A stretch of DNA of 64,000 nucleotides. Origin: a virus. The stretch is from UHGV virus genome UHGV-1366603; one strand, given 5' to 3'. The notes below the pieces were generated by a model that saw only the letters and a list, made by a program, of their open reading frames with translations, was not told the DNA's origin and did not search any database. The position numbers were made by a program, and so were the translations under genes. Shown piece by piece: positions 6,631 to 47,720 of this stretch; positions within the stretch are counted from its first letter, which is position 1; each line of letters begins with the position of its first letter.

Positions 6631-6672
6631 CTCCTACCCTCTTAGAGGGTAGGAGTAGCACGTTTTTTTTTT
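6631..6672 (+). terminator. terminator-like hairpin (CTCCTACCCT-CTTAG-AGGGTAGGAG) followed by T10
   Basis: 10-bp stem between convergent genes 5363..6625 and 6676..6885; the T-run starts ~8 nt after the stem. Confidence 0.45.
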
Positions 6673-6675
6673 CAC

Positions 6676-6885
6676 TTAGTCTTTTTTGTAGACGATCGCG
6701 TTACCGTGCAGTTTGTTGTTACCGGAAATACCGATAACTTTAAACGCTTCACCGCCGATCTTTTCAGCTTCGACAGCCAGCTTAGCAGTAACGTCGTCTA
6801 CGGTGTCACCGAAAGCGCTTACGTTACCAATTTTCTTGAACTCTTCAGGAATGTGTTCAGCAGAAGAGAATTCTTTAATAGCCAT
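6676..6885 (-). CDS. small YdgH/BhsA/McbA (DUF1471)-like domain protein, no signal peptide
   Basis: 69 aa. C-terminal pattern ..KLAVEAEKIGGEAFKVIGISGNNKLHGNAIVYKK matches the DUF1471 signature (..SG.N..HG.A..YK). Confidence 0.5.
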   Translation of the reverse strand: MAIKEFSSAEHIPEEFKKIGNVSAFGDTVDDVTAKLAVEAEKIGGEAFKVIGISGNNKLHGNAIVYKKD

Positions 6886-7084
6886 AGCTACTCTCCAGTT
6901 AAAGAAAGGAAGGACTGTATCGTGTTACAACCAAAGCATAAGATAGCTCCTCCCCGAAGGGAGGAGTGAGTGCGCGAAAAAAGTGGCCTGCTTAACTAAA
7001 CGATGAGGTTTAAGAAAAGTGTTGATAAGAAGCTTACCAACGTCAGGTCACAATATATAATACCAACGTAAGAAAAAGGGGAAA

Positions 7085-8050
7085 TTAGCGTGGGCCTGAA
7101 GTTGGGCCATGTACACCGTCGTGGATGTGTACGCTGAAGGTAATACCGGAAATCACCGCATCCTTAACTGTAAAGACACCCACACCTTCACCCGTACCAC
7201 CGTATTTGAAGTTCTTAGCAACTTCCAAATTACCGGTGAACATCGCTTCATTACCCTCTTGCTTAAAGTTCGGCGTTTTATACGTTGTGGAACCGGAGGC
7301 TTCGGTTAGCCACGTTTCTGTTTTAAAGGTAACCGATTTCGACGCTTCGGTATTCCGAACTTCGCATTTCTCATTAATCGTTTTCGTTTCCAGGTTAATC
7401 GAACGTTTTGCGTAAATGAACGCATCTTCTTTGTTGATGTTCACTTTCGAGAGCATCGCGTTCTCAAAACCTAAATCGTCTTCCACCGAGTTAATGTAAT
7501 ACTTATTCCCTTTATGGTCAACGCACTGCCACGACCCGTTAGCGTTATCGAATTGGAATAACCACGCCGCTTTCTCCCCGTTCACCATACTTGTTCTTAG
7601 GGTAACGTGTTTGTCAATCGTTGAGACGTTTAACACATACGCGTTCGACAAGTCATCCGCCATCTGGTTTTCAGGGTCAGCAGACCACGCGTAAACCGCA
7701 TCCTCTAATCGCTTAACGTTAGCGAAATTCAAATCAATCCAAAAATAAATATCGGTTTGCCCTAGACGTAGCAAGATAACATAATCTTCACGCTTAACGT
7801 CTGGGGAATTAATTCGATTGGAATTAAACTTCCACCACTTTGCGGTAATCGTGTTACCGGTTTTAATCGTTAGGTTGTCGGTAGCACCCCCGGCTTCGTG
7901 TACCTTTTCAGCGGTTGAGGAAACTGACTGTACAACGGTAGGGTTCGCAAAGTTGGTTTCAATGGGAATAACACTCACCCGATCCGTACCACGAGGTTTA
8001 TCTTCCGCGACGATACCAATCGAGAAAAAGTCAACGCTGGATTTCTCCAT
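7085..8050 (-). CDS. hypothetical protein (321 aa), possibly virion-associated
   Basis: ORF track; Thr/Asn-rich beta-type composition; lies in the minus-strand structural block. No motif recognised. Confidence 0.55.
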   Translation of the reverse strand: MEKSSVDFFSIGIVAEDKPRGTDRVSVIPIETNFANPTVVQSVSSTAEKVHEAGGATDNLTIKTGNTITAKWWKFNSNRINSPDVKREDYVILLRLGQTDIYFWIDLNFANVKRLEDAVYAWSADPENQMADDLSNAYVLNVSTIDKHVTLRTSMVNGEKAAWLFQFDNANGSWQCVDHKGNKYYINSVEDDLGFENAMLSKVNINKEDAFIYAKRSINLETKTINEKCEVRNTEASKSVTFKTETWLTEASGSTTYKTPNFKQEGNEAMFTGNLEVAKNFKYGGTGEGVGVFTVKDAVISGITFSVHIHDGVHGPTSGPR

Positions 8051-8080
8051 TAGGTCGTTCCTTAGATCGGAAATGTAATC

Positions 8081-8102
8081 AGATATATTTTACTTAGGTG
8101 AG
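8081..8102 (+). promoter_or_regulatory. candidate phage promoter motif AGATATATTTTACTTAGGTGAG, followed by a hairpin at 8104..8130
   Basis: Member of a recurring AT-rich motif family (see findings); sits at the head of the plus-strand block. Confidence 0.3.
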
Positions 8103-8438
8103 TAGGGGCTGAAGTGCGAATTCAGCCCCTATGGGCACGTTTCTTTCGAAACGGAGTTACCATGTGATTAGGAGACAGACCAATGTCTACTGAGAAGAAA
8201 AGCGGATTGGACGAAGTCATCGAATTGTTCAAACGCTACAACCCGGCTATTCCTCGGTAATCATAGTATTACTTAAAATTTACAGATTGTCCCTTTATTC
8301 TGCTACTCGGGATACCGGTAGGGGGTAGGGGGCAATATGTATACGGATATAAATAGCGGAGGTATACGTAGTATACCGACATACTCTTCCCAGAGGAACG
8401 TAGTGACTTCCTTATTCCTTTTTAGGAGAATAAACCTC

Positions 8439-9173
8439 ATGAGAGAATTATTAGACGATATCTTTACCAACACCAGTTTAGAACTTTCTTCTACAGTGGT
8501 TAACGAACTAATAAAACAATCGCAACCTGCTAAGTTAGTCACTGTCAGGGTAGTTAACCCTAAAGATTATCTAGGCTGCGATATCATAAACGGTACGATC
8601 GATGAGTACGCAATTGGTATTTACGCCGACTGGGTCTTCTTTGTTCTTAATACCGAAACCGGTGTCATGTTAACCTACACGATGAGTAGTGATGTCGAAC
8701 ACGAAGTTGTAGCGAAACATATTCGCCACATTGCCAGCACGCCTACCTTTTCCGACGTTACGTTTATTGGGGGAAGCACTATGCTGACGTTATTCTCTTA
8801 CTTCCCACTGTTTAGACATGGGGTAGGGTTAATCAAGCATGTAGAAAACCTTCCCGCTGATGTAGAATTAACGTTGCTCGGTCGGGACATTAGTCTTTAT
8901 CCCTTAAAAGATAACGGTAAGTTATACGGTTTACGTATCTATGTTTCTTGGTTAGAGGGATACCGCGTTATTGAACTGATTGCATCGGATTTAACAAAAC
9001 AAATCCCAGAGGTGGAAACGATTTCTAAAGCCACCCACCTGGTTGAGATTAACCCAGACGATCCGTTTTTACAGTATCACAATGAAATTGCCCTTCGTGG
9101 TATCGCTGCCGTAAAAGGGTGGGGGTGTGCTGAGATTACGAAGGGGTATCTGCTGTTAATTAAAACCGCGTAA
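8439..9173 (+). CDS. hypothetical protein, divergent member of tandem paralog family 1
   Basis: ATG at 8439 preceded by TAGGAGA. C-terminus ..AAVKGWGCAEITKGYLLLIKTA resembles the GW..V...G.QLLF.A tail of the next three genes. Confidence 0.55.
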   Translation: MRELLDDIFTNTSLELSSTVVNELIKQSQPAKLVTVRVVNPKDYLGCDIINGTIDEYAIGIYADWVFFVLNTETGVMLTYTMSSDVEHEVVAKHIRHIASTPTFSDVTFIGGSTMLTLFSYFPLFRHGVGLIKHVENLPADVELTLLGRDISLYPLKDNGKLYGLRIYVSWLEGYRVIELIASDLTKQIPEVETISKATHLVEINPDDPFLQYHNEIALRGIAAVKGWGCAEITKGYLLLIKTA

Positions 9174-9198
9174 GTAAAAACCTAAAGGAGAAAATATC

Positions 9199-9753: not shown

Positions 9754-9781
9754 GTAACGAAAACCCTAAAGGAGAGTAAAA

Positions 9782-10933: not shown

Positions 10934-11000
10934 TAAGTGAAAATACACTTTCTCTAACTGCCGCGCTTTAGTCGCGGCTTTTGTTAAGAAGGAAATAGAA

Positions 11001-12425: not shown

Positions 12426-12447
12426 AGATATATATTACTCAGGTGAG
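12426..12447 (+). promoter_or_regulatory. candidate phage promoter motif AGATATATATTACTCAGGTGAG, followed by a hairpin
   Basis: Contains TATATTAC; lies between the terminator and the first secreted-protein gene; followed by hairpin AGAGTTAA-GAT-TTAACTCT. Confidence 0.35.
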
Positions 12448-18691: not shown

Positions 18692-18798
18692 TTGAGGGTA
18701 TTCTGTTAACACTTGGGTCGTTGTGGATTATTGGGAAATCCCTCAACTGGCTGATTAATAAGTACGGATGGGCTTTCAAAGGCTCTACGCACAGTTAA
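18688..18798 (+). CDS. small membrane peptide (36 aa)
   Basis: ATG overlaps the upstream stop (ATGA); SD GGAGGGAAG; sequence MIEGILLTLGSLWIIGKSLNWLINKYGWAFKGSTHS. Below the ORF-track size cutoff. Confidence 0.35.
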   Translation: MIEGILLTLGSLWIIGKSLNWLINKYGWAFKGSTHS

Positions 18799-18848
18799 GT
18801 TAGAACCCCCTCCTGGGTAACTGGGAGGGCGTTTTACGAGGGAAAACC

Positions 18849-18977
18849 ATGACTGTTGTCAATACTACCAATGCTGCAATTGGCGCTTTATACAACGCGG
18901 AACTAACATGGGGTGCGGGTTTTATCACCGTACTGCTTCTCGCCGCAGCCGCTTTTATCATTGGACGTTGGTTTTAA
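18849..18977 (+). CDS. small membrane peptide (42 aa)
   Basis: ATG with GAGGGAAAACC upstream; sequence MTVVNTTNAAIGALYNAELTWGAGFITVLLLAAAAFIIGRWF. Below the ORF-track size cutoff. Confidence 0.35.
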   Translation: MTVVNTTNAAIGALYNAELTWGAGFITVLLLAAAAFIIGRWF

Positions 18978-19010
18978 TTTCATCTTTTTTGCGTCTGTAA
19001 GGTCTGATAA

Positions 19011-19454: not shown

Positions 19455-19520
19455 AACAATAAAGGCTCTCTTGACGTTCCTCACTATGAGTGTGAGATTT
19501 TTACGTCAGGAGAGCTACTT

Positions 19521-19757: not shown

Positions 19758-20097
19758 TGAACCACTGGATAACAGCGACATCTTACAAATCTGTTATCAG
19801 TGTCACGAAATCGGTGGTAGCGAACTTACGCGGATTAATAAACTACTGTGGCTGATTCCAGAAATCGAATTACCGTTCGTTAAACCGAGTTTGTGGCGTC
19901 GTGGTGCGTGTCGTGAAGCGTATATGCTGTCAAAATTTAACATTAATCTGGAGAAAGTCTGGGAGAAAATGAATGATGCTCAAACCCGAGAACAGATTAC
20001 GCACACGCTGGAATTGCATCTTGCCATGAAACGCCTCGGTCTTGAGCATGAAGGGCTAGAGTCCGTTATCAGTCAATGGGTGAAAAGGAATCGTTAA
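19723..20097 (+). CDS. hypothetical protein (124 aa)
   Basis: ATG with AAGGAGA upstream. Confidence 0.55.
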   Translation: MLPGTQTPYLFSEPLDNSDILQICYQCHEIGGSELTRINKLLWLIPEIELPFVKPSLWRRGACREAYMLSKFNINLEKVWEKMNDAQTREQITHTLELHLAMKRLGLEHEGLESVISQWVKRNR

Positions 20098-20795: not shown

Positions 20796-21482
20796 ATGTT
20801 TCGTATTTTCTTTCTTTTACTGGTAACACTTTTCGCGTTTAACGCATACGCATCCAAATCCGCACCCAGTGCCAAACACCATCGTGAATTCGAAATGATT
20901 CAAGACCGTTTCGAACGTGTAAAACCGTTGATTGTGGAAATCTCCCGAAAGCAGGGCGTCGATCCTAAGTTGATGACCACGCTAATCTATCGGGAATCGC
21001 GGTTTAATCCGAAGGCGTATAATCGAACGTCTAAAGCGCACAGTCTGGTTCAGATGCTACCGAGCACAAAGCGTAATTTGCTAAAACTCTACGGTGCCGA
21101 AATCGGACTTAGTCGTAACGCGGATTTGTATAATCCTCGTAATGCGGTGCTATTGGCTTCCGTCTACGTTAAACATTTAGAAAAGGGGTTGACTAAACGA
21201 CTCAAACGCAAGCCCACTATTGCAGAAATTGCATTGGCTTATCACTGGGGTGAAAGTGGTGCACACGCCAGGATTAAAAGCAAGTCTCGGGCAGCACAAC
21301 GAGAAATGGCGAGCTTTATGAAAGATGCAACGTTCTACAGTGCGAAAATCGACAAGCCTGTAGCATCTCGTCAGCTTGCGTTTGCGAAGAAACCAGAACG
21401 CCAGATTCAGTTAGCGGAAGTTAACCGAATTTGGGATACGATAAACACCAGTTTTCCATTTAAACAAGGAGTCACCCTTTGA
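20796..21482 (+). CDS. secreted soluble lytic transglycosylase (SLT domain), endolysin candidate
   Basis: Signal-peptide-like N-terminus MFRIFFLLLVTLFAFNAYA; SLT motifs ..LIYRESRFNPKA.. (catalytic Glu-Ser) and ..AHSLVQMLPST..; ATG at 20796 has GGAGAA upstream (ORF-track start at 20769). Confidence 0.65.
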   Translation: MFRIFFLLLVTLFAFNAYASKSAPSAKHHREFEMIQDRFERVKPLIVEISRKQGVDPKLMTTLIYRESRFNPKAYNRTSKAHSLVQMLPSTKRNLLKLYGAEIGLSRNADLYNPRNAVLLASVYVKHLEKGLTKRLKRKPTIAEIALAYHWGESGAHARIKSKSRAAQREMASFMKDATFYSAKIDKPVASRQLAFAKKPERQIQLAEVNRIWDTINTSFPFKQGVTL

Positions 21483-21988
21483 GCATCGTTGTAACCGATT
21501 GGTATAAAGGTATCACTAAGGCTACCCAAATTACTGCCCAGGACGTGTACAGTATCGTTCGTAGCAGTAACGAAGACCAGATAAAGTCCGACGAAGACTT
21601 TGCAACGCGTCATGAGTTTTACGATGCCCTTAAAACGGCTTTCGGTGATGACGAAGAAGAAGGTTTAGAGTTTGACTGGAACGTCAACCTTGCCTTGTTG
21701 TGGATTTGCGGATTACGTCCGAGTGTGAAAGACACGGAGCAAGGGAAAGTTCTGTTGTGGCGCTACACCGGTAAATACAATCCGAACCAGGTCTTTAAAG
21801 AAGCGTATATGGAAGCCACTGTAGAGTTACAGAATCTGCTGTTGGGTGAGAACACCTACTGTCAACGCAGCTTCCTGACGATTCTGGAGAAACTGGCGAC
21901 TACACACAAAATCTGGCGTCAAGCAGATGCCCCTGAACACATCTTCGTTCTGGAATATGCTGTGATTCCAAACCAACCGTTCTTTTAA
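21479..21988 (+). CDS. hypothetical protein (169 aa)
   Basis: TTG start overlapping the upstream stop, with AAGGAG upstream. Confidence 0.5.
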   Translation: MSIVVTDWYKGITKATQITAQDVYSIVRSSNEDQIKSDEDFATRHEFYDALKTAFGDDEEEGLEFDWNVNLALLWICGLRPSVKDTEQGKVLLWRYTGKYNPNQVFKEAYMEATVELQNLLLGENTYCQRSFLTILEKLATTHKIWRQADAPEHIFVLEYAVIPNQPFF

Positions 21989-21994
21989 TACTTG

Positions 21995-22030
21995 CCCCTA
22001 ATCCGATTGGATTAGGGGTACTTTTATTTA
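21995..22030 (+). terminator. rho-independent terminator (CCCCTAATCC-GATT-GGATTAGGGG + T-run)
   Basis: 10-bp perfect stem followed by TACTTTTATTTATT. Confidence 0.6.
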
Positions 22031-22051
22031 TTCCCCTAAAGGAGCAAAGGT

Positions 22052-22531
22052 ATGTTGAAGTTTATCTGGCGTTACCCAACCCGCTTTTGGTTCGTGGTAT
22101 TAGAGGTAATCACCGTTTTACTGTTAGTGACGTTCGTAAACGCCTCTACGAAACAAATGGTGATTTTCTGTGTATTCGTGGCTATACCGCTGTGGGTGTT
22201 TGCAAAGATTATTAAGTTTTACATGATAAGCTGGGCGAACTACACCTGTCCATTTAAACCCAGAGAAATCATGAACTGGTTGATGTATATCGAAGACCGT
22301 TTACCCGCTCAGTCTAAAACGTTAGGTTGGCAATCGATGTTGGATATTGCGCTAGAAACAAACGCAAAATTCCCTGGGTCAAAGAATCCTTATTTGCTGC
22401 TGGCTGTTATTGTTGCCCAGCAGAAACGTGCAGGCGAACGTTGGTTACCGAAAGAAGCGAAAGAGTATATTCGTAAACATCCGAAGGCTTTCTATTCCGT
22501 AGGTCAATGGCGTAACCTCCCACTCTTTTAA
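22052..22531 (+). CDS. membrane protein (two N-terminal TM segments), function unknown
   Basis: SD AAAGGAG; hydrophobic stretches FWFVVLEVITVLLLVTFV and MVIFCVFVAIPLWVFAKII. Confidence 0.6.
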   Translation: MLKFIWRYPTRFWFVVLEVITVLLLVTFVNASTKQMVIFCVFVAIPLWVFAKIIKFYMISWANYTCPFKPREIMNWLMYIEDRLPAQSKTLGWQSMLDIALETNAKFPGSKNPYLLLAVIVAQQKRAGERWLPKEAKEYIRKHPKAFYSVGQWRNLPLF

Positions 22532-22583
22532 CTTTTTACAAAACCCTTAGTTGATTTGAACAAACCTAAAGAGGACTATTAAA

Positions 22584-23516
22584 ATGACTTTTCCATCTGA
22601 AGTAATTTACGAACTGGCTAACACACTGCGCCGTCGTTATAACTACCATATGCTGCAAACCAGCGTAGGTGCAACCGCTACCTTTCTGCGCAACCATTTC
22701 CTAGGCAGTAATCAATCTTCAATTACGCAGGAAATGGTTTTCTCTATCGATCGAACCACCAAAATTCTTCCGATTGACAGTGCAATTGCGGTTCAAAATG
22801 GTGATATGTTCAACTTCTCCATGGGAATGCGCCATACAACCGTTACTGTTGACCCAAACGTAGGGATCGAACATTCTTTCATGCGCAACCCGTATCCTCT
22901 CCCGGATAGCTGGTTCGTTGTTGTAGAACAAGGGGTGAATCAGTACGAAGTTGTTGCGGCACGCGACGAGTCTTTCTTTGACTTGGGGCAGATTTCGCGC
23001 CGCCTGGAAATTGCTCTCGAACTTCGCCAAGGCAATATCGGATTAAATGGGGGCGTCGTCTACTTCATCCTGAGCAACTGGGCGCATGTGAGCTACGTCC
23101 TGAGAAAAGCTGACGCAACGTTCCACGCAACAGAAGTAAATTACCTCTCCGCTGAGAATGAAGATCAAGACGAAGAAGAAACCGTCCCTGGTACAGAAGT
23201 CGCCGTTTGCGAAGACTACGATGATCTGAAATCTGTGCTTGTTAAGCGCGATGTTTTCGAATCGTTAAACCTGGATTTCCCTGGTGACGAAAATGAAATA
23301 TCCGTAGCTGACCTGGTAGAAGCATTGTGTCAGAAAGACCAAGCTAATGAAATCAGTGACGAAGAAGCGGAACTCTTCCAAGTTCAACAACTCGTCAGCA
23401 AGGTTATCGGCGGCCAGGAAATCGTTGACACCCTTATGGCTTTACCAGCGAAGAAACGCACTCAAAAGTACATTCGTGAACTGGTTCTTAAAAATCTGGG
23501 TCAAACCAAAAAGTAA
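22584..23516 (+). CDS. hypothetical protein, paralog pair 2 member, acidic C-terminal region
   Basis: N-terminus MTFPSEVIYELANTLRRR and ..LNGGVVYFILSNW...EV shared with 23577..24125. Confidence 0.6.
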   Translation: MTFPSEVIYELANTLRRRYNYHMLQTSVGATATFLRNHFLGSNQSSITQEMVFSIDRTTKILPIDSAIAVQNGDMFNFSMGMRHTTVTVDPNVGIEHSFMRNPYPLPDSWFVVVEQGVNQYEVVAARDESFFDLGQISRRLEIALELRQGNIGLNGGVVYFILSNWAHVSYVLRKADATFHATEVNYLSAENEDQDEEETVPGTEVAVCEDYDDLKSVLVKRDVFESLNLDFPGDENEISVADLVEALCQKDQANEISDEEAELFQVQQLVSKVIGGQEIVDTLMALPAKKRTQKYIRELVLKNLGQTKK

Positions 23517-23523
23517 TATAAGT

Positions 23524-23557
23524 CCCCTACTCCTCCGGGAGTAGGGTTATTCTTTTT
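23524..23557 (+). terminator. rho-independent terminator (CCCTACTCC-TCCG-GGAGTAGGG + T-run)
   Basis: Member of the CCCTAC-type hairpin family. Confidence 0.6.
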
Positions 23558-23576
23558 TCCATCTTAGGAGTATTAA

Positions 23577-24125
23577 ATGTTTCCATCGTCTGAATATTTA
23601 ACCCACCTGGCTTACGGTATTCGTCGTGGTTCTGTTTTCCGTACACGTTTAAAGGATATAAATTTCCTGGCTAATTTCTTATTTGATCGTTTGGGAGATG
23701 GCAATAGCGTTTACAAAAAGATCACCACAACACAACTTTATTCCCTTATAGCAGCATCGGAAATTGTACCTACAGATATTTGGCGATTCAAACGGTATTG
23801 CGAGGGAATTACGATCAGTTTTCTTGATCATTCTCCGATTACCGTTGAAATCGTCGATCGCGTTGATATTAATAGTGAAGTATCAGGTTGGAAGATTCTG
23901 TTCGATTGTGGCAATCGTTATGCGGTACTTGGTTCCTCTGATGAGCGTGACTTCCCATTCGACAAACCCTACTACTACCTCAACGAGGATGAATTCCCGG
24001 ATAAAGAATCCAATATCTTTTTAAACGGGAATACCGTTTACTTCATTTTTCGTACCTGGAACGATGTTGCTGCTATGATTGCTCAAGGCGTCATCGATTA
24101 CCGTAAACTAGAAGTCGACATTTAA
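23577..24125 (+). CDS. hypothetical protein, paralog pair 2 member
   Basis: N-terminus MFPSSEYLTHLAYGIRR and ..LNGNTVYFIFRTW...EV. Confidence 0.6.
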   Translation: MFPSSEYLTHLAYGIRRGSVFRTRLKDINFLANFLFDRLGDGNSVYKKITTTQLYSLIAASEIVPTDIWRFKRYCEGITISFLDHSPITVEIVDRVDINSEVSGWKILFDCGNRYAVLGSSDERDFPFDKPYYYLNEDEFPDKESNIFLNGNTVYFIFRTWNDVAAMIAQGVIDYRKLEVDI

Positions 24126-24136
24126 AATAAAAGCTA

Positions 24137-24172
24137 CCCTACTCCCGAAAAGGAGTAGGGTAATTTCTTTTA
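24137..24172. terminator. bidirectional terminator between convergent genes (CCCTACTCC-CGAAAA-GGAGTAGGG, T/A runs on both sides)
   Basis: Same stem sequence as the hairpin at 23524; flanked by A-rich 5' and T-rich 3' sequence. Confidence 0.6.
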
Positions 24173-26702: not shown

Positions 26703-27158
26703 ATGAAATTGCTGTTATTCATCATGATTTTGTGCGTGGGTTTGGTGAGTAATAGCTATGGAGAACCCGGTAAACGGCCATCCTATACTGCGTTACAACC
26801 TCCGCCAGCGCCGCCTATCATGCTAAATTGGAAGATTGATAAAGACGCGATGCGGGAATATGTTGCGGATGTGAATACATACGCTTATTACGTTTATCTC
26901 TACACACGAAACTTAAATCAACAAGCAGTCAAGCGCGGGTGGAATCCACCGATGTTAGCGCCTATCTGCGAACGGTTTGAAATTCCTAAATTACATTCCG
27001 TTCCAGAGAAGATGTTATTAGACGACAAAGCGTTAACGCCACAAGAAATCAGTCGCGATTTATCACGTAAACTGAATTCGTTGTTGTGGAATTATCGCTC
27101 TGACCGGCAAGCTTTATTAGACGCCTACGATCAGTATCTGACAACGTGTTTGAACTGA
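26703..27158 (+). CDS. small secreted protein (signal peptide)
   Basis: N-terminus MKLLLFIMILCVGLVSNSYG; SD TAAGGAG. Confidence 0.6.
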   Translation: MKLLLFIMILCVGLVSNSYGEPGKRPSYTALQPPPAPPIMLNWKIDKDAMREYVADVNTYAYYVYLYTRNLNQQAVKRGWNPPMLAPICERFEIPKLHSVPEKMLLDDKALTPQEISRDLSRKLNSLLWNYRSDRQALLDAYDQYLTTCLN

Positions 27159-27163
27159 CAACG

Positions 27164-27205
27164 CCTCCTGTATCCTTCGGGGTACAGGAGGTATTTTCTT
27201 TTTAA
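27164..27205 (+). terminator. rho-independent terminator (CCTCCTGTA...TACAGGAGG + TATTTTCTTTTT)
   Basis: Seen directly in the sequence after the stop at 27158. Confidence 0.55.
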
Positions 27206-31504: not shown

Positions 31505-31993
31505 ATGAATTTAAATCAAATTATCGCTTTGAAAAACTCAGACATCATTCATGAATTCCTCAACCATACCGACCGTGTACATGCCACGATCAGAAATAAA
31601 CTCGCACCAATGGTCGTCGATACTCCCTGGATGGCTGGCGTTGCCAGCGACTACATCGAAAATAGTTACAGAGCCCGACTTATAACGAATCTGGATGATT
31701 TCTTTGTTGGTTTCTTTGGCGGAATCACAAAATCATTTATCGATAGACGGTTATACGGAATCCGTATTGAAACATTACAATCGCTAATTAACGAATACCA
31801 TAACGGTTTTATCCCAGCAATTGTACCGCCTTATGCAGAAGGTGAGTGGCGTCGTTTCTATAGTCAAATTTGGGGCAATGAAGCACACTCACACGGTATT
31901 GTGGAAATCATTAGCTACGATCAAGGTATGCTCGCACTACACCTGTGGGAATGGCTAAAAGCTAACTATCCAAATTACGTCAAGATCGACTAA
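31505..31993 (+). CDS. hypothetical protein (162 aa)
   Basis: ORF track; SD TAAGGAG. Confidence 0.6.
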   Translation: MNLNQIIALKNSDIIHEFLNHTDRVHATIRNKLAPMVVDTPWMAGVASDYIENSYRARLITNLDDFFVGFFGGITKSFIDRRLYGIRIETLQSLINEYHNGFIPAIVPPYAEGEWRRFYSQIWGNEAHSHGIVEIISYDQGMLALHLWEWLKANYPNYVKID

Positions 31994-31998
31994 TATAC

Positions 31999-32030
31999 AC
32001 CCTAGCCTCGGCTAGGGTTACTTTATTTTA
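31999..32030 (+). terminator. rho-independent terminator (CCCTAGCC-loop-GGCTAGGG + T-run)
   Basis: Hairpin followed by TTACTTTATTTT. Confidence 0.5.
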
Positions 32031-32051
32031 ACCATTTTAGGAGTATATACC

Positions 32052-32984
32052 ATGTATTTGTACAAAAGTAAAAAAGTAAAAGGTATTAAAGACTGTCTTA
32101 GACAAATGGGGAGTCAGCATCTAGAAAATGTCATGGAAGAAAACCAAACAAAAGAAAATCCTGTCTCGAAATGGATAAAAAAGAATCGTAACCATTTAAC
32201 CAATTCCTTTATACCCTACGACACTGAGTTAGGTCTCAAAGATCCACGTTCCCTTCACGCACAAACGTTGGCAATCGGGTGGCTATATGGCGGGGTTTCC
32301 TTAATATCCAACCAAGCACTTAGAGAACTTGTTTTCGAGACTGAGATGCCCAGTAAATTCCCTGAAGAATGGTTGGACTTTATACCCGCATGGACTGTGG
32401 CAATCGACGTAGGTAAAGAGGATGAGACTTTCTTTCTCGGCTATCGAAAAAATGGGAAGAAAAGGTTTATTATAATCGCTACAAATACTGATTACGGGTT
32501 AACAGAAGGAGTTACCACAATTGCCACTTGTTCGTTAGAGCTTCGTAGTGTAGGAAACGGGCTTGTTGAAATTGATTATACAACTGGCGTACAGACCGAA
32601 GAAGAGAAGATGTTATGGTTATCTCTGGCCAAAGCCGCCACTTCGATGATATTTCTGTGCACGCTAATCCCGCCTAATTACAGGGAGTCTTTTAATGATA
32701 TTAAGTTCAGGGAAATCAAAAAGAACGGTAGTATTAGTTACGACGTTAAACCGCGAGAACGTGATGTTAAGGTTGATATCACACCAGGACAAGTAAAATA
32801 TCTAAAAGGATTTAACACCGACTTGAAAGCCATGCAGGGTATCAAACACGCCAAAGCTGCACATATTCGTCGTGCACACTGGCGTAGATATTGGGTCGGT
32901 CCAAGAGATGGGGAAAGGAAGAGAAAACTTTGCTGGATTCCACCGACGTTTGTCCGAGGCTACGTACCCCACACGCAAGACTAG
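32052..32984 (+). CDS. hypothetical protein, paralog pair 3 (Arg-rich C-terminal HIRRAHWRR..W.WI.PTF motif)
   Basis: C-terminus KAAHIRRAHWRRYWVGPRDGERKRKLCWIPPTFVRGY; SD TTAGGAG. Confidence 0.6.
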   Translation: MYLYKSKKVKGIKDCLRQMGSQHLENVMEENQTKENPVSKWIKKNRNHLTNSFIPYDTELGLKDPRSLHAQTLAIGWLYGGVSLISNQALRELVFETEMPSKFPEEWLDFIPAWTVAIDVGKEDETFFLGYRKNGKKRFIIIATNTDYGLTEGVTTIATCSLELRSVGNGLVEIDYTTGVQTEEEKMLWLSLAKAATSMIFLCTLIPPNYRESFNDIKFREIKKNGSISYDVKPRERDVKVDITPGQVKYLKGFNTDLKAMQGIKHAKAAHIRRAHWRRYWVGPRDGERKRKLCWIPPTFVRGYVPHTQD

Positions 32985-32995
32985 GAGAATTATAA

Positions 32996-33879
32996 TGTTA
33001 AGACGCAGAATTTATGGAGACACGCTTCGTCGTATTAGTGAAGCTATAGAGACTGCACACAAAGACTTGTTTGGTCTGAAAGAAGATCGGTTTCTAACGT
33101 TTGTCAGGGAACACAAGAGACAACTCCCCGTAACCTTTCTGCCCGTTAACGACCCAACGTACCGTGAGTTCGGCACCACCAAACAGGTGCCGTATTCTAT
33201 TCGCCAGTCGTTAGGTTTGGGTTGGCAATACGCAGGTATTGAAATTATCTCTGATAAAGAGCTGATGGGATTACTTGCAGACACAGAACGTTTAACGGAT
33301 ATTCCGTACGCGTGGATTGAAGCCATCCCTTCATTCACCTTTTCCGTGACTGTCAAGATTAACGAACTTCCTGCTACGCTCTTTATCGGTCGTCGTAAAT
33401 TCGAAGGTGAAGAAGTATTGTTCGTTTTACGATGGGTGGAGATAAATCAGCGGCACTGTTGGTCAACCAAGATTTATCGGTTCAACAGAAAGGCAGACGA
33501 CTTTGTTAGTTTAGAACCTTACTTTGCTAACGAGTCAAAGGACGAGGAACTTCTGGATGAGGTACATATCGGTTTATATCTTTCCTCGCGGGTGAAGAAA
33601 TCGGAACGCGAGCGACGGGAATACCGTGGTAGAACGACACGTTACGTACCTGATACAGAAATCCTCCCACGCAGAGAACCTGTCGTTGTTGACGTAAGTC
33701 CAGTACAACGCGAAGACTTAGAGAAGCAACGCAGAGAAGGCAGGAGAATCTGTTTAACGCCGCATCGCGCAGCGCACATACGCAGAGCACATTGGAAACG
33801 GGTCTGGTGTGGACCAATGACAGGGACACGCTGGCAGGAATGGCGTTGGATTGCACCCACCTTTATATCCGGTTTTTAG
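32996..33879 (+). CDS. hypothetical protein, paralog pair 3
   Basis: ATG at 32996 preceded by AGGAGA; C-terminus RAAHIRRAHWKRVWCGPMTGTRWQEWRWIAPTFISGF. Confidence 0.6.
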
Positions 33880-33896
33880 CGTGAAAATAAAGATTA

Positions 33897-33942
33897 CCCC
33901 TAGACCTTGTGGTCTAGGGGTAGCTTTTACTTATTATTTTTT
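33897..33942. terminator. bidirectional terminator (CCCCTAGACC-TTGT-GGTCTAGGGG, T-runs both sides)
   Basis: 10-bp stem between convergent genes 32996..33879 and 33934..34689. Confidence 0.6.
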
Positions 33943-34689: not shown

Positions 34690-34786
34690 TTAAAACCTCG
34701 GATTATAAGTCAGGGTTACATAGTAAAGTCTTTTTACAGTTCATCCTGAACTTATGACCGAGATTATCTCACAAAGGTAAAGCTCG

Positions 34787-36598: not shown

Positions 36599-36643
36599 AA
36601 GCGTTAGGGTAGGGGATTACCCTACCCTAGCTAAGGAGTCGTT

Positions 36644-38757: not shown

Positions 38758-38775
38758 AGATATTATTTACGTGAG
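38758..38775 (+). promoter_or_regulatory. candidate phage promoter motif AGATATTATTTACGTGAG
   Basis: Member of the recurring motif family, ~20 nt upstream of gene 38796. Confidence 0.3.
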
Positions 38776-41471: not shown

Positions 41472-42293
41472 ATGTCCGAACCACAATTACTGCGCTCCGT
41501 ATTAATGAAAATCAAAAGTCAACGTGAAGACATTCAATCATTGGCTTTAACGCTCGGTTATGCGCCGGGTGACTTACGTTCTAAATCCTACGTGAACGCG
41601 TCAAGCATTGTACTCACGCCTGATGAGCGCCTTGCTTATGTCCTATACCTGAGACGGTTAGGCTATGTTTGTGCTTTACCTGAACAACTCCCGTTTACCG
41701 ATGGGGTGAACCACATCAACTTTTACTCCAACGGTCGTACTACCGTGGGTAAGATGATCAGTAACTTCTACGCGAAACCTGACGGGTCAAAATTCGACAC
41801 GATTCACGGTCAGTTCCTGACGTTGGAAGGTTACTATCACTACTTGCGTATCGTTGACTACATGTTACACATGGGTTATTCGATTAAAACGATGGGGCGT
41901 CTGGAAACTGAATTTCCTGATATTCTTCGTTTACGTACGTTAACGGGTACGGAATGTATTCAGTTAGGTCGTCGATTAAAAGCGGCAATTTACGGGAAAA
42001 CGGATTACCGTCCGGGCGAGTTTAGTAGCTACGCGACTGGCGCATTTAAGAATGCACTGCTGCGTAAGTTACACCTGTTACAATACGACGGGTCTTGTTT
42101 AGGTAATACCCTGTCTTACTGCCATTCAATGAATCTTCCGTTCTTGCATTATTACGTTATGAACGGTCGGGTGATTACACCACCGCATTCTGAATGGCTT
42201 CCTAATCTGGTGATTTCTATTGTAGAAAACATCGACTATAACGACTCGACGTTCGATATTACGGACGTCAGTGAACGTATGGGATTAATCTAA
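41472..42293 (+). CDS. hypothetical protein (~273 aa)
   Basis: ATG at 41472 with AGAGG upstream; ORF-track start at 41430. Confidence 0.55.
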   Translation: MSEPQLLRSVLMKIKSQREDIQSLALTLGYAPGDLRSKSYVNASSIVLTPDERLAYVLYLRRLGYVCALPEQLPFTDGVNHINFYSNGRTTVGKMISNFYAKPDGSKFDTIHGQFLTLEGYYHYLRIVDYMLHMGYSIKTMGRLETEFPDILRLRTLTGTECIQLGRRLKAAIYGKTDYRPGEFSSYATGAFKNALLRKLHLLQYDGSCLGNTLSYCHSMNLPFLHYYVMNGRVITPPHSEWLPNLVISIVENIDYNDSTFDITDVSERMGLI

Positions 42294-42952
42294 TGGGATT
42301 GTTCGATACCCTAGCGCGGCTGGATAAAGCGCAGGAAGAAGAAATCATTCGTGTTGCAGGTGAATCCATTAAACACGAAGTCGAAAAGGAATACTGCGTT
42401 TGGGTAAAACCGACGCAAGCGGGATGGGATTGGCTCCACGCACAAGAAGCCAAGATGTTCATGGACATTCTCATGCCGATAGAAGGTGGGCGTCGTCGTA
42501 TCCGTATTAAAGAAGACGGTACGGCACAGCTAACGCTTAAGCGTAAATTCCAGGACGGAAAGGTTGAAGAGAATTCGGATATCGGGATTAGTTCCGCACT
42601 CTCTTTTTACAAAGATGGCTATTTGGCACACCTGGTGAAGCGTGTTCACTTAGAGCCAGGTGAATTAGCCGATAAAGGTGCTAAGCATTGGGATATTGAT
42701 ATTTTCAGTATCACCACCGGACACCCTGCTATTGAAGTTTCGGCTGACTTTAACGATCTCCTCACCGAGATGCGTAGTAGTACCAGCGTCGGAGACTGGG
42801 TGAAAGTTGAACTGGAAGTCGAGCGTTACGAGATTGCGGATGTGTTGTCCGTGATTCCGTTTGAGTTTGACGGCCATATTCCGGCTACGCCAAAAGATCC
42901 TGAAGACCAAGAATACCTTCGCGATTACTGGGATTCAGTTACCCGTATGTAA
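42293..42952 (+). CDS. hypothetical protein (219 aa)
   Basis: ATG overlapping the upstream stop. Confidence 0.6.
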   Translation: MGLFDTLARLDKAQEEEIIRVAGESIKHEVEKEYCVWVKPTQAGWDWLHAQEAKMFMDILMPIEGGRRRIRIKEDGTAQLTLKRKFQDGKVEENSDIGISSALSFYKDGYLAHLVKRVHLEPGELADKGAKHWDIDIFSITTGHPAIEVSADFNDLLTEMRSSTSVGDWVKVELEVERYEIADVLSVIPFEFDGHIPATPKDPEDQEYLRDYWDSVTRM

Positions 42953-42958
42953 CACCTA

Positions 42959-42997
42959 CCCTACTCCTGTCTGGGAGTAGGGTATTTTCATTTTTTA
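42959..42997 (+). terminator. rho-independent terminator (CCCTACTCC-loop-GGAGTAGGG + T-run)
   Basis: Third copy of the identical CCCTACTCC/GGAGTAGGG stem, followed by TATTTTCATTTTTT. Confidence 0.6.
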
Positions 42998-43016
42998 CCC
43001 TAAAGGAGAATTTACC

Positions 43017-43385
43017 ATGCAAGCTCAGTTTTTTAATACTCCCAACGGATTCGGTTTTAGATTCCCTGAATTTGTTTTACCAAAACAAGTTATTGAAGTA
43101 CCACTCACACGTGGTGTGCTATTAAAGCTACGCACCGTACTGGCCAACTTCTCAGGAAAGACTGTGGATATTCGTGTATGGTCAGGTTCGGGAAGTCCTG
43201 GTGGTGTTTTGTTTGTCGATTACAATTGGATTAAAAGGACAGGTTTTCCGCTTGTACGAAAAGTTGAAGCTGTACACGGATTATCCTTCCACACTCTGCT
43301 GGGTGATTTAACGTTCCCTGAAAGTGGCGAATATTCTACTCCTGCTGAAGACGAATACCAAATTCATCTCGTTTTGTTGAAGTAA
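43017..43385 (+). CDS. hypothetical protein (122 aa)
   Basis: SD AAAGGAG. Confidence 0.55.
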   Translation: MQAQFFNTPNGFGFRFPEFVLPKQVIEVPLTRGVLLKLRTVLANFSGKTVDIRVWSGSGSPGGVLFVDYNWIKRTGFPLVRKVEAVHGLSFHTLLGDLTFPESGEYSTPAEDEYQIHLVLLK

Positions 43386-43448
43386 TTTTTACAATTAGGT
43401 GTAGATTTATGTCTCCCCTAGAACAAAATCTAAATCGGAGAAACAATT

Positions 43449-43859
43449 ATGCGTGAACATATCCTCGATCTTAGTGTTTCTGTAGAAGAACTTGTCAATC
43501 AACTTGGCGGCACGGGTCATGGTCTTCATTCAAAGACGAACAGTATAAGCCATCTCCTCGACCCAGAGTACGAACGAAAACTCCACATGATCGCAACCGT
43601 TCGTAACAAAGCCATGCACGAGAATATTCTCCCTACCAACATTCAAGCCTTTGAACAAGCCGTAGCAGATACAAAAGTTTATTTGCTTGACCTCTGTTTG
43701 CGCCAAGAAAACCCTAGCCAGTCGGAACCCAAAGAGCCGGGTAAAAGAAAGCTTGGGTGGTCTGAAATGAATAAGAAGCAAAGAATCTATTACGGTATCG
43801 GTATTGCTATCGGCTGTGTCGCTATTGGTATTTTCGGTATAACAGGACCTAAAAGATGA
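43449..43859 (+). CDS. hypothetical protein with C-terminal TM anchor (136 aa)
   Basis: C-terminal hydrophobic segment IYYGIGIAIGCVAIGIFGI. Confidence 0.55.
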   Translation: MREHILDLSVSVEELVNQLGGTGHGLHSKTNSISHLLDPEYERKLHMIATVRNKAMHENILPTNIQAFEQAVADTKVYLLDLCLRQENPSQSEPKEPGKRKLGWSEMNKKQRIYYGIGIAIGCVAIGIFGITGPKR

Positions 43860-44401
43860 AACTCGTAAACATGACGGACGAGGTTTCTAAGTTTATTGTT
43901 TTCTTAGAAAACCAAAATGTAAAGCCGGGTGAGAACATTGACGAATGGATGCTTAGACTACACAGCACGATAGGTAAAGTGTGTGGGTCAATCACCTCAA
44001 TCGACAGTTTAGGTCTGGCCAGAAACATTGGGGTAGCCTTTTGGGATATTGCTGCTTTTGTCTACGTTACTAATAAAGGAAACTTACACCCGTTCTTAAG
44101 CTCTCTGGTAAGGATGAATGGGGTTCGTAAATGGAGCAACGACCCTATCGTGATACAGGGAAGTAAATTAGTTAACGCGGCAGTACGAACTATTGCTCTT
44201 GGGCAATGCCGTACGGGAAAATACACGGACAAATGTGAGATAGAACTCACGACGTTAACTTATCGCCTGGCGTCTGTTGCCAGAACCAACGGCTTAGTCG
44301 TAGACCGCGTTATCAAAAACGGTCGCGAGACGTGGGTTAAGGAACAAAACAAAGGCGATTTTCTCTCTTATCTTGAATTACACAAAATGATTAAAGGATA
44401 A
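43856..44401 (+). CDS. hypothetical protein (181 aa)
   Basis: ORF track; start overlaps the upstream stop. Confidence 0.55.
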   Translation: MKLVNMTDEVSKFIVFLENQNVKPGENIDEWMLRLHSTIGKVCGSITSIDSLGLARNIGVAFWDIAAFVYVTNKGNLHPFLSSLVRMNGVRKWSNDPIVIQGSKLVNAAVRTIALGQCRTGKYTDKCEIELTTLTYRLASVARTNGLVVDRVIKNGRETWVKEQNKGDFLSYLELHKMIKG

Positions 44402-44409
44402 TCAGTACG

Positions 44410-44718
44410 ATGGAAAACTATTCGGGTTGGGCAATTTCGCAGTGCATTGGCTATTCTTTACGTTCTTTAGTGCGTACACTTTATAACAAAAACTCAGGTG
44501 AAGCTATTACACCACAGTTACTGGGCAAATTGGAAGTCGAAGTTAACCACAAATTAAAGCAGTTACTCGACAACCACGTAAGAACAATGCGTTGGGAGTT
44601 TTTGTTGCGTGGTAAGAAGCCGTCAATTACTGTTGTGGCAGAAGGCAGTGAAATTGTTCTCCAATCCAACGCAGACCTGTTTGAAATTTTAACTGAACTC
44701 GAAAAGGACAAAATCTGA
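44410..44718 (+). CDS. hypothetical protein (102 aa)
   Basis: ORF track. Confidence 0.5.
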
Positions 44719-45752: not shown

Positions 45753-45782
45753 ATTACCACCTAATTAAAAAGGTATGATAAA

Positions 45783-46229
45783 ATGTCTAAAACTCATGTT
45801 AACTATAACATCGTAGTAGAAGAATTATCAAAAGGTTTAACCGATCTGGATTCTAAAGATAATCCGTTTACCGATCGCTATGGTCCCAATGCTTTGTCTG
45901 AATTTCGTACTATCCGCTACGGTACAGGTAGGCAGATGGGGCTTACAGACTTTGGTGTCGAGTTAGCTAAGAACCATAAAGGGAAAGTATTATTCGTTAA
46001 CCCAAAAGGGTTCTTAGAGGACGATGTGCTATTCCGTTTAGGTCTCGAAGACTTACCGGAGAATATCACACAAATCAGCGGTTACCAAATGGGTACAGAA
46101 AAAGAAAAATACAGCCTTGTCATTGTAGACGACGCTGGGGTTTTCTTTAGCATGTTCCGTTACATGAAGTTCTTCCGCTTACTTGCAAACTCAGTAACTA
46201 AAGACGTTGTAATCCATTTAATAGGTTAA
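45783..46229 (+). CDS. hypothetical protein (148 aa)
   Basis: ORF track. Confidence 0.55.
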   Translation: MSKTHVNYNIVVEELSKGLTDLDSKDNPFTDRYGPNALSEFRTIRYGTGRQMGLTDFGVELAKNHKGKVLFVNPKGFLEDDVLFRLGLEDLPENITQISGYQMGTEKEKYSLVIVDDAGVFFSMFRYMKFFRLLANSVTKDVVIHLIG

Positions 46230-46249
46230 TTAATGACGAGGGAATTCTT

Positions 46250-46400
46250 TATGTCGAATGATGTCATTAAAGTTACTATAAAGTATATCAATCTGAATAA
46301 GAGAATCCGTTGCAAAGTAAATCGTAAAGCTATCGCTAGTCGCTGGCGTAAAGGACCACACAAGGGTCGTAAACGCTTTCTGGCTTTTTGGGATGTCTGA
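46250..46400 (+). CDS. small basic protein (49 aa)
   Basis: MSNDVIKVTIKYINLNKRIRCKVNRKAIASRWRKGPHKGRKRFLAFWDV; below the ORF-track cutoff. Confidence 0.3.
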
Positions 46401-46624
46401 TGAAAAAACCACGTTTTCACAGCCTGAGATACTTTACAGGTACTCTATATTTTATTGGCTACAACCGTGTACGTAAGGGTCCTGGTAAATCGAAGATGCG
46501 CATCGTGCGATATAAAGAGACGCCGCCAGGTCTAGCACCGATGGCGAAACTTCTGTCGCCGTTCGCTAACCTTAATATCAAAACTGTTAACCCCTTTGTA
46601 AGAAATCTGGAAACTAAAAAATGA
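46400..46624 (+). CDS. small basic protein (~74 aa)
   Basis: ATG overlapping the upstream stop (TGATG); ..RVRKGPGKSKMRIVRYK.. resembles the RWRKGPHKGRKRF segment of the preceding ORF. Confidence 0.4.
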   Translation: MKKPRFHSLRYFTGTLYFIGYNRVRKGPGKSKMRIVRYKETPPGLAPMAKLLSPFANLNIKTVNPFVRNLETKK

Positions 46625-46764
46625 CTGAAGAAGTTAAAGTAGAAGCCGTTAAAGAAACTGACGAATTTGCAATCCCTGGCTTAGACCCGGAAGCGACCGT
46701 AGAGAAAGGTGCTGACCCAACTACGGAAGACGATAACTGCTCAGGCGGGGCTTGCAAAATTTAA
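46621..46764 (+). CDS. small acidic peptide with C-terminal CSGGACKI (47 aa)
   Basis: ATG overlapping the upstream stop; below the ORF-track cutoff. Confidence 0.3.
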   Translation: MTEEVKVEAVKETDEFAIPGLDPEATVEKGADPTTEDDNCSGGACKI

Positions 46765-46772
46765 CAGTTCAC

Positions 46773-46813
46773 GGGGTGCTTATGTAGCACCCCTAATCCT
46801 TATTCTTTTTTTG
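46773..46813 (+). terminator. rho-independent terminator (GGGGTGC-TATGTA-GCACCCC + long T-run)
   Basis: Seen directly in the sequence. Confidence 0.6.
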
Positions 46814-46834
46814 TTAATCTAATGGAGTTTTAGA

Positions 46835-47665
46835 ATGGGCGAACGTTTTAACATCAACGCTATTTACAACATCGTAGTTAATCCTGGTCAGCACCTGGAA
46901 GAAGTTAACGCGCAACTGCGTGCTCTGAATGAGAAGGCAATACAGTTCGACGCCATTTACACAATCGGTGTAAACCCTGGTACCAATCGTATTCGCGTGG
47001 AAGGTAAACGACACACCGGCACTCAAGAACTGGACATCGAAACGATTGAAGCACCGATTAAACTTACTGATGCTGTTTATAACGGTACAGTAATGCACAC
47101 CGTATCGGTTCCGGTCTATTCTATTGCGAACTGTGCAGAACATGTTAAAGGTTGGTCTAAAGAACGCGGCATCCTCGATAACGGTAAACTGGAAACTCAA
47201 ATCACGAAATTCTTTGAAGAGTTTGGTGAAATTGCAACGGGTATCAGTAAAAACAAACCTGATTTGATCATGGACGGGATCGGCGATGCGTTAGTGGTTT
47301 TAGTGAACATCCTGGAGCTGGGTAAAGACAAACTGTCTGGAGAAATGACAACCGCTGAAATCATCGAGCACGGTTTACAGTTGCAGGTAGATGATGTCGC
47401 TGACGTTGAAGAACATTTTGATGACAACGGGTATCCACATCATTTGTATCTCCACGCTACCGAAATCTTCGCTACCGCATTTATTCGCTCCGATGCTGGG
47501 TTCGATCAGCTTAACTGGGCTTTGTACCGCCTTGCAAAACTGGCTCTCTACTATCGTCTTGACATTCGTCATTGTTTCTCTTTAGCCTGGCACGAAATCA
47601 AAGACCGTAAAGGTTACCTGAACGCCGACGGCATCTTTGTAAAAGAAGCAGACTTGGCGAAATAA
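46835..47665 (+). CDS. MazG-like nucleoside triphosphate pyrophosphohydrolase domain protein with N-terminal extension
   Basis: ..KFFEEFGEIATG..(x10)..LIMDGIGDALVVLVNILELG.. matches the MazG EExxE ... E/DxxGD helix pair. Confidence 0.6.
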   Translation: MGERFNINAIYNIVVNPGQHLEEVNAQLRALNEKAIQFDAIYTIGVNPGTNRIRVEGKRHTGTQELDIETIEAPIKLTDAVYNGTVMHTVSVPVYSIANCAEHVKGWSKERGILDNGKLETQITKFFEEFGEIATGISKNKPDLIMDGIGDALVVLVNILELGKDKLSGEMTTAEIIEHGLQLQVDDVADVEEHFDDNGYPHHLYLHATEIFATAFIRSDAGFDQLNWALYRLAKLALYYRLDIRHCFSLAWHEIKDRKGYLNADGIFVKEADLAK

Positions 47666-47673
47666 ATAAAAGT

Positions 47674-47720
47674 ACCTACCTCCGAAAGGAGGTAGGTTAA
47701 CTTTCTTTTTTTCTTTTTTT
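47674..47720. terminator. bidirectional terminator (CCTACCTCC-GAAA-GGAGGTAGG, T-runs both sides)
   Basis: Between convergent genes 46835..47665 and 47719..48282. Confidence 0.6.

Follow-up and report, generated by a model that had tools for sequence, protein, structure and literature searches.

Recurrent CCCTAC-type hairpins at the gene ends of an SPN3US-like jumbo phage as probable intrinsic terminators

The closest described counterparts of the elements considered here are the transcription terminators of phiKZ-like jumbo phages. In phiKZ, 133 termination regions have been mapped by ONT-cappable-seq, and 61 predicted intrinsic terminators share the motif BCCYCCCCHWWDGGGRRGGBYTTATKYYGT, that is, a hairpin made of a C-arm and a G-arm followed by TTAT (PMC10914365). 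A very similar motif A (n=59) is known from phage 201phi2-1, where termination is bidirectional at 15 sites and eight terminators have been confirmed in vivo (PMC11512511). Here, we describe nine intergenic hairpins, most of them built on CCCTAC/GTAGGG stems, in a stretch of 64,000 nucleotides (nt) of the virus genome UHGV-1366603, which as a whole is called the window throughout. These hairpins probably serve an SPN3US-like jumbo phage related to phiKZ as intrinsic (factor-independent) terminators, in a dialect specific to its lineage. Most likely, they are that lineage's version of the terminator motif known for phiKZ and not a new kind of element.

The resemblance to phiKZ and 201phi2-1 lies in the many copies per genome, in the short, C-rich and G-poor 5' arm, the short loop and the G-rich 3' arm, in a T-rich tail that often contains TTAT, in the presence of some bidirectional copies at convergent genes, and in the carrier, a phiKZ-related jumbo phage encoding its own multisubunit RNA polymerases (RNAPs). 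Unlike the CCYCCCC arm of phiKZ, the core of the window hairpins, CC(C)TAC(T/C)CC, contains a TA step, and their stems measure 8–13 bp compared with about 7 bp. No paper describing an SPN3US-clade version of the terminator motif was found in the literature, and a literature search for the exact stem sequences returned unrelated primers only.

When positions 20000–44000 were compared by megablast with annotated phage genomes, jumbo phages alone were matched, namely Salmonella phage SPN3US and its relatives, Erwinia phage phiEaH2 and others, and Proteus phage 7. Conserved genes share ~74% nucleotide identity with SPN3US, and the gene order parallels SPN3US 153,989–218,687 almost gene for gene. 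Within 57712–63507, a protein of 541 amino acids is 87% identical to SPN3US gp026 and one of 1,388 amino acids is 77% identical to gp025, both annotated as RNA polymerase beta subunits. Because a Pfam search with the RNAP-like, UvsX-like and neighbouring proteins of the window gave no domain matches, these protein identities rest on similarity to annotated SPN3US genes. The nearest sequences are uncultivated IMG/VR contigs of 220–225 kb, and IMGVR_UViG_3300045988_078609 shares ~97% nucleotide identity over most of the 21 kb compared. By synteny and similarity, the window is a fragment of an SPN3US-like, phiKZ-related jumbo phage. SPN3US itself is one of the jumbo phages related to phiKZ, which carry both virion and non-virion RNA polymerases of the multisubunit type (PMC7598289), and the trait of split multisubunit virion and non-virion polymerases is found for the window through its synteny with SPN3US and its similarity to gp025 and gp026.

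The gene map of the window was curated by hand and leaves 2,995 nt intergenic and 61,005 nt coding. All nine hairpins that an initial annotation of this DNA had reported were recovered when the window was scanned exhaustively for perfect inverted repeats (stem of at least 8 bp, loop of 3–8 nt). Folded as RNA, they have free energies (dG) of -15.3 to -26.5 kcal/mol and z of -4.1 to -6.5, and 0 of 200 shuffles equal them. The nine sites are the following, with dG in kcal/mol.

6631–6655: putative bidirectional terminator, CTCCTACCCTC-TTA-GAGGGTAGGAG, with a T-run on each strand; convergent junction between a + gene ending at 6625 and the DUF1471-like gene 6676–6885 (-); dG -20.1, z -5.3; SPN3US ortholog of the site, ACCCTACTCCC.
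21995–22018 (extended 21993–22020), + strand: putative intra-operon terminator or attenuator, (TG)CCCCTAATCC-GATT-GGATTAGGGG(TA), then CTTTTATTTATT; between + genes 21479–21988 and 22052–22531; dG -20.6, z -5.7.
23525–23546, + strand: hairpin CCCTACTCC-TCCG-GGAGTAGGG, then TTATTCTTTTTT; between + genes 22584–23516 and 23577–24125; dG -18.3, z -4.4.
24135–24162: putative bidirectional terminator, TACCCTACTCC-CGAAAA-GGAGTAGGGTA, with AAAATAAAAGC upstream and ATTTCTTTT downstream; convergent junction 24125(+)/24170(-); dG -21.0, z -4.8; SPN3US ortholog, CTACCTACTCC.
31999–32018, + strand: hairpin ACCCTAGC-CTCG-GCTAGGGT, then TACTTTATTTT; between + genes 31505–31993 and 32052–32984; dG -15.3, z -4.4; kept in close relatives, where the loop is TTCG.
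33895–33922 (extended 33894–33923), site A: putative bidirectional terminator, (T)TACCCCTAGACC-TTGT-GGTCTAGGGGTA(G), T-rich on both strands; convergent junction 33879(+)/33934(-); dG -26.5, z -6.5.
36605–36629 (extended 36603–36631), + strand, site B: G-first hairpin (GT)TAGGGTAGGG-GATTA-CCCTACCCTA(GC); dG -23.5, z -4.3.
42957–42984, + strand: hairpin TACCCTACTCC-TGTCTG-GGAGTAGGGTA, then TTTTCATTTTTT; between + genes 42293–42952 and 43017–43385; dG -20.6, z -4.1; orthologs in relatives, TACCCTACTCCT, TTCCCCTAC, CCCTCTCC and ACCACTCC.
47674–47697: putative bidirectional terminator, ACCTACCTCC-GAAA-GGAGGTAGGT, with AAATAAAAGT upstream and TAACTTTCTTTTTTT downstream; convergent junction 47665(+)/47719(-); dG -21.4, z -5.4.

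Eight of the nine copies follow one design, with a C-first 5' arm of C, T and A, a loop of 3–6 nt, a purine-rich 3' arm and a T-rich tail, the latter present in 8/8 and on both strands in four. Their 5' arm is free of G in six of the eight and holds a single G in 31999 and in 33895. The stems are perfectly paired over 8–13 bp and often lengthened by a T-A pair (TACCC...GGGTA), and 92 oriented tails of related contigs give the tail consensus T-A-W-Y-T-T-T-T-W-T-T-T. Of the phiKZ type, a short hairpin with a C-rich 5' arm poor in G, a loop of 4–6 nt and a T-rich tail typically containing TTAT, both arm bias and tail are accordingly seen in the eight C-first copies, and 36605 has neither on the + strand. 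The stems that the initial annotation called identical (23524, 24137 and 42959) are so: CCCTACTCC/GGAGTAGGG gives six zero-mismatch matches in the window, which make up three palindromes (23525, 24137, 42959). Perfect hairpins of at least 8 bp with a G-free 5' arm and a T-run number seven in the window and 0.00 in 20 Markov simulations. The predicted intergenic enrichment of the motif is likewise present, as CTACTCC has 9 copies in the intergenic and 2 in the coding sequence. In an unbiased 6-mer test, CTACTC/GAGTAG and CCCCTA/TAGGGG showed the top intergenic enrichment after poly-A/T, above the Shine-Dalgarno word AAGGAG.

The position of the hairpins relative to genes is what would be expected of terminators, which is how the initial annotation had taken most of them. 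They sit immediately after stop codons and combine the canonical features of intrinsic terminators, namely a stable hairpin, a location at the gene 3' end and a U-tract. All four non-overlapping convergent junctions of the window hold a family hairpin (6631, 24135, 33895, 47674) in a gap of 44–54 nt, where an A-run upstream and a T-run downstream yield a hairpin plus U-tract on either strand. Since each of these four copies is a perfect palindrome with an A-run on one side and a T-run on the other, all four are predicted to work in both directions; the number of bidirectional copies, earlier put at three, is therefore corrected to four. The other four C-first copies (21995, 23525, 31999, 42957) lie between co-directional + genes, 25–35 nt before the next start codon, and no promoter-like sequence was seen between them and the next gene. 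Because of this closeness and the missing promoter-like motif, the four intra-block copies would have to be leaky.

The CCCTAC family is the commonest of several stem types in the window, not the sole one. The CCCTA core is missing from six more hairpins that look like strong terminators (10960, 12370, 15262, 15924, 27163, 46773), one of which may stand for this broader class:

27163–27192, + strand: hairpin GCCTCCTGTATCC-TTCG-GGGTACAGGAGGT, then ATTTTCTTTT, after gene 26703–27158; ortholog in the related contigs L086 and L090, CCCTCCTGTACC, G-poor with one G.

The same bias extends to SPN3US, whose full genome was assembled from its record and scanned as the window had been, with junctions read from the annotation tables. 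The scan gave 83 perfect hairpins. A T-run follows all 22 of those whose 5' arm is G-free; G-first hairpins carry one in 1/7, and those with mixed arms are split into 28 with and 26 without. Seen from the other side, 22/51 of the T-run hairpins have a G-free 5' arm. A perfect palindrome of at least 8 bp with T-runs occupies 14/16 non-overlapping convergent junctions, some arms are repeated exactly at unlinked positions (CCCTCTTACC three times, ACCCTACTCC twice and CCCACTCC three times), and the dominant loop is UUCG. The same scan of 100 kb of E. coli K-12 found 16 T-run hairpins, of which a single one (1/16) had a G-free arm, so the stem dialect appears as a property of the phage and not of terminators generally. 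Bacterial Rho-independent terminators do share with the window the GC-containing hairpin and U-tract at gene 3' ends, as well as the upstream A-tract where they are bidirectional. Their stems are diverse, whereas those of the window recur, and the polymerase that reads the latter is probably phage-encoded.

On the favoured reading, the newly made RNA would fold into the stem as the polymerase occupies the U-rich tract, leading to release of the transcript. The dialect would consist of a perfect stem of 8–13 bp, a C/T/A-rich 5' arm, a purine-rich 3' arm, a loop of 3–6 nt and a (TA)NYTTTTATTT tail. RNA 3' ends are thus expected to form at the hairpins, and we infer, by analogy with phiKZ, that the polymerase reading them is the phage's own set of multisubunit RNAPs. 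Leaky copies inside operons would set relative transcript levels and give stable 3' ends. Several points weigh against this reading. The searchable literature holds no terminator or transcriptome data on SPN3US-like phages. The published phiKZ consensus gives 0 matches in the window at up to three mismatches, so the link to phiKZ is one of architecture, not of sequence. Given that four copies lie within 35 nt of the next start, efficient termination would leave the downstream genes with no visible promoter. Finally, selection on structure alone fails to explain the recurrence of one 9-mer at unrelated sites in phages with 20–28% protein identity, nor does structure by itself account for the near-exclusion of G from the 5' arm.

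This last point leads to the rival that survives best, although we consider it unlikely: that the stem CCCUACUCC/GGAGUAGGG is read sequence-specifically by a phage factor, besides or instead of plain intrinsic termination. Candidate readers would be the exit channel of the phage RNAP, a factor for termination or anti-termination, or an RNA-binding protein with a part in protecting or routing the 3' ends of mRNAs. A pattern search of IMG/VR for the exact CCCTACTCC-N3-8-GGAGTAGGG speaks for such reading, as the stem pair (18 nt) occurs in 81 stretches, or 58 distinct flank clusters, with up to seven copies per contig, compared with 15 and 9 stretches, hardly any of them on jumbo contigs, for the composition-matched controls CCCATCTCC and CCCTCATCC. 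Contigs carrying the exact stem are mostly of 220–250 kb (46 of the 80 stretches listed come from contigs of at least 200 kb), and a T-rich tail accompanies 59 of the 81 unique hairpins on one side or more and 33 on both. Homologs of SPN3US or window proteins are encoded by 60 of the 81 stretches, and because ~24 of these 60 match at just 20–37% identity, the stem reaches distant jumbo phages. The search also returned a 13-bp extended version, CTACCCCTACTCC...GGAGTAGGGGTAG, usually without an adjacent T-run, in more distant jumbo-phage contigs (L007, L008, L010, L012, L030, L032, L039, L049, L051, L055 and L073), several of them of 229–236 kb and with 20–28% protein identity to SPN3US.

Comparison of individual sites, for which fifteen related loci were fetched via the UvsX-like gene, bears on the same rival. 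At site A (33895), the orthologs have a C-first stem resembling (C)TACC(C/T)ACTCC in every lineage, with a G fraction of 0.03 in the 5' arm; substitutions at several positions are compensated in every case, and no two of the 11 loops are alike. The 9-mer CCCTACTCC is found at site A in the most distant relatives (68–70% UvsX identity), at three other sites in the window and at a fifth in SPN3US, hence at no fewer than five orthologous sites in all. These alignments show selection on pairing, and beyond that either selection on the word or its composition or repeated homogenization. If a factor conserved across distant nucleus-forming jumbo phages took the stem (loosely, the G-free 5' arm) as its signal, the keeping or re-creation of the 9-mer at different sites, in spite of 20–28% protein identity, and the G-free arm that persists through compensated changes would be explained; we regard such a signal as doubtful. 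No candidate factor was identified, and the many other G-free stems of SPN3US make the constraint look compositional or architectural instead of tied to one fixed word. Moreover, hairpin arms evolve slowly in any case, since each change needs compensation.

The arm-swapped control, GGAGTAGGG-loop-CCCTACTCC, is a further argument against a dedicated reader, being found in 69 IMG/VR stretches (L105–L173) that fall into 38 flank clusters. These are AT-rich phage contigs of many sizes, their hairpins have AT-rich loops of 6–7 nt, and one match lies on a contig of 211,215 bp. About 20 of the matches represent one orthologous site, ...TGTGTTGGCA GGAGTAGGG ATTTAAT CCCTACTCC TTCCTG TTTTTC.... As the arm-swapped form is common in unrelated AT-rich phage contigs, the preference for one arm polarity is lineage-specific and not universal.

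The idea of the initial annotation that conservation exceeds what a terminator needs, and hence signals an added role, is sustained in part. The stems are indeed more alike than structure requires, as seen from the three identical copies and from the 81 matches set against 9 and 15. However, a shared stem is already documented among the terminators of the related jumbo phages phiKZ (61) and 201phi2-1 (n=59) and so is no sign of an added role on its own. Such a role is not needed, though it may exist. A fixed word repeated as an inverted pair, which gives many terminators one stem, is also described for the uptake sequences of Neisseria and Haemophilus (PMC1852404). Uptake sequences are over-represented as single copies genome-wide as well, unlike CTACTCC with its mere two copies in 61 kb of coding sequence.

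A role at the DNA level is a good deal less probable still. Here, the identical palindromes would serve as hot spots of recombination or template switching that shuffle gene cassettes, in the manner of the PeSL of T4-type phages. The latter, attributed to Arbiol et al. (2010), is reportedly a stem-loop paired with an early promoter and made of longer repeats. Both systems place repeated intergenic stem-loops beside variable gene cassettes in a large virulent phage, but the CCCTAC hairpins of the window have no adjacent promoter-like motif and thus lack the coupling that marks PeSL. In tblastn searches, 6/9 hairpins border genes without an SPN3US homolog (22052–24125, 31505–33879, 43017–44718), and one mosaic boundary between the window and its relative L084 falls ~50 nt upstream of hairpin 31999. 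The enrichment is nevertheless weak (6/9 hairpin junctions vs 24/67 junctions overall), variable genes are expected at transcription-unit ends whatever the mechanism, and the other boundary examined is ~450 nt away from hairpin 42957. In L083, a relative with 97% identity, identity falls to ~50% across 43,500–44,400, and this segment is for that reason taken as a replaced cassette.

Template switching itself has left traces within the palindromes. Compared with near-identical relatives (L083, L045, L029), three loops are exactly inverted with unchanged stems: GATTA/TAATC at 36615–36619, CGAAAA/TTTTCG at 24146–24151 and TCCG/CGGA at 23534–23537. Such inversions indicate frequent template switching or spacer inversion at the DNA level inside these short palindromes. 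Concerted evolution by this route was considered, as it would also keep the arms perfectly complementary. The T-runs, A-runs and UUCG loops are left unexplained by a DNA-level role.

That the hairpins are RNA processing sites of the RNase III type (raised by the initial annotation as a possible added role) or a mobile REP/MITE-like repeat, instead of terminators, is very improbable: the family is repeated, palindromic and intergenic, and its 36605 copy has no T-run and adjoins a ribosome-binding site, but stems of 8–13 bp without internal loops fall well below the length of RNase III substrates, the copies keep the same orthologous positions in relatives with no presence/absence polymorphism, conserved flanks or target-site duplications, and no Rfam family is matched at gathering thresholds. 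RNase III requires RNA that is mostly paired over some two helical turns, or roughly 20 bp. The REP/BIME elements of enterobacteria are imperfect palindromes of about 35 nt, often clustered and without T-runs, and they are bacterial. They too are repeated at gene 3' ends, and REPs can stabilize the upstream mRNA; the window hairpins differ in being perfect, single, T-tailed and positionally orthologous among phages. L083, L084, L086 and L090 have the hairpins at identical positions, relatives further away have them at orthologous sites, and the flanks of different copies are unrelated. The cyanobacterial HIP1 palindrome was not found in the window.

Read as intrinsic terminators, the hairpins offer a ready-made map of transcription-unit ends for the SPN3US-like lineage and would extend to enterobacterial jumbo phages the pattern of one preferred terminator stem known from phiKZ and 201phi2-1. 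Arm polarity and the recurrent 9-mer provide a handle on how the little-studied RNA polymerases of jumbo phages terminate, and the hairpins are compact candidate bidirectional terminators for synthetic biology. Should they be only a preferred thermodynamic solution, the finding is a useful annotation and nothing more.

The ninth hairpin, at 36605, stands apart. As the initial annotation stated for its copy at 36604, there is no T-run on the + strand and the hairpin adjoins the ribosome-binding site of gene 36644, ending 1–3 nt before its Shine-Dalgarno AAGGAG. Its membership in the family did not hold up, as the arm polarity is opposite to that of the other eight copies, with the G-rich arm first. 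A G-first hairpin directly follows the UvsX-like gene in 13/13 related loci covering site B, a count that leaves out a 14th locus ending inside the hairpin. The stems at this site (TAGGGTAGGG, TCGGGTAGGG, GGGCGGG, GTGGCGGG, CGGGGCGG, CGGGGTGG, GTGGGGTGG and AAGGCGGG) vary among relatives with compensated changes that include CG to UA and GC to AU. The 36605 hairpin is not a CCCTAC family member by descent but the window's version of a G-first hairpin conserved in position.

A T-run accompanies the site B hairpin in SPN3US, L089 and L096 and is absent from the window's lineage and four others. In SPN3US and the phiEaH2-like relatives, the hairpin with its T-run would be an ordinary terminator. 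Because only some relatives have it, the T-run seems dispensable and site B a conserved structural element. Its role may accordingly be to protect the 3' end, to cause pausing or weak attenuation, or to insulate the ribosome-binding site downstream. In the window, 36605 is more likely a candidate weak attenuator, 3'-end protector or translation insulator. A minus-strand terminator was not adopted as its main reading, as the T-rich run on that strand corresponds to the Lys-rich C-terminal codons and stop codon of the upstream gene; in relatives, this run is 4–9 nt away from the site B stem.

Two other G-first hairpins resemble 36605 and lie between co-directional genes, at 50519–50538 (GGGGGTGG/CCACCCCC) and at 63514–63534 (GGGGTGGG/CCCACCC). 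Both are about 10–20 nt before the next ribosome-binding site with no adjacent T-run, and the former has an ortholog at 205184–205205 of the SPN3US record (TAGGGGGTG/CACCCCCTA). The T-less G-first hairpins may make up a further class of intercistronic hairpins. With stems of just 8–13 bp, they too are improbable targets of RNase III.

A promoter-like AT-rich motif, ATATWTTACTYAGGTGAG, occurs on the + strand at 8085–8102, 12430–12447 and 38758–38775, three copies vs 0.11 expected. All are intergenic, ahead of + gene blocks, and none is next to a CCCTAC hairpin. The motif may be an early promoter of this phage lineage; if the copy at 8085 is a promoter, the adjoining G-first hairpin 8103–8131 would be a 5' leader stem-loop, not a terminator.

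A few observations concern the surroundings of the hairpins. A scan of the window for tRNA and tmRNA genes found none. The gene 6676–6885 (-), which encodes 69 amino acids, matches SPN3US gp094, annotated as DUF1471 domain-containing, and DUF1471 is a bacterial-type family of small proteins; the gene is flanked by the putative terminator 6631 and by an untranslated region of 199 nt with a C-first hairpin at 6947–6966 (CTCCTCCC/GGGAGGAG). In SPN3US, where the terminators are perfect palindromes, gp239 (record 21020–22168, L100) is annotated as the SbcD-like subunit of an endonuclease specific for palindromes. Larger structures include a nested 14+5 bp hairpin at 19464–19516 (dG -29) in the intergenic stretch 19455–19520 and a long hairpin (dG -28) in the divergent region 34690–34786. 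Lastly, the 319-nt gap 18692–19010 holds an apparent unannotated open reading frame of ~43 codons, which would encode a hydrophobic peptide and is preceded by an imperfect C-first hairpin.

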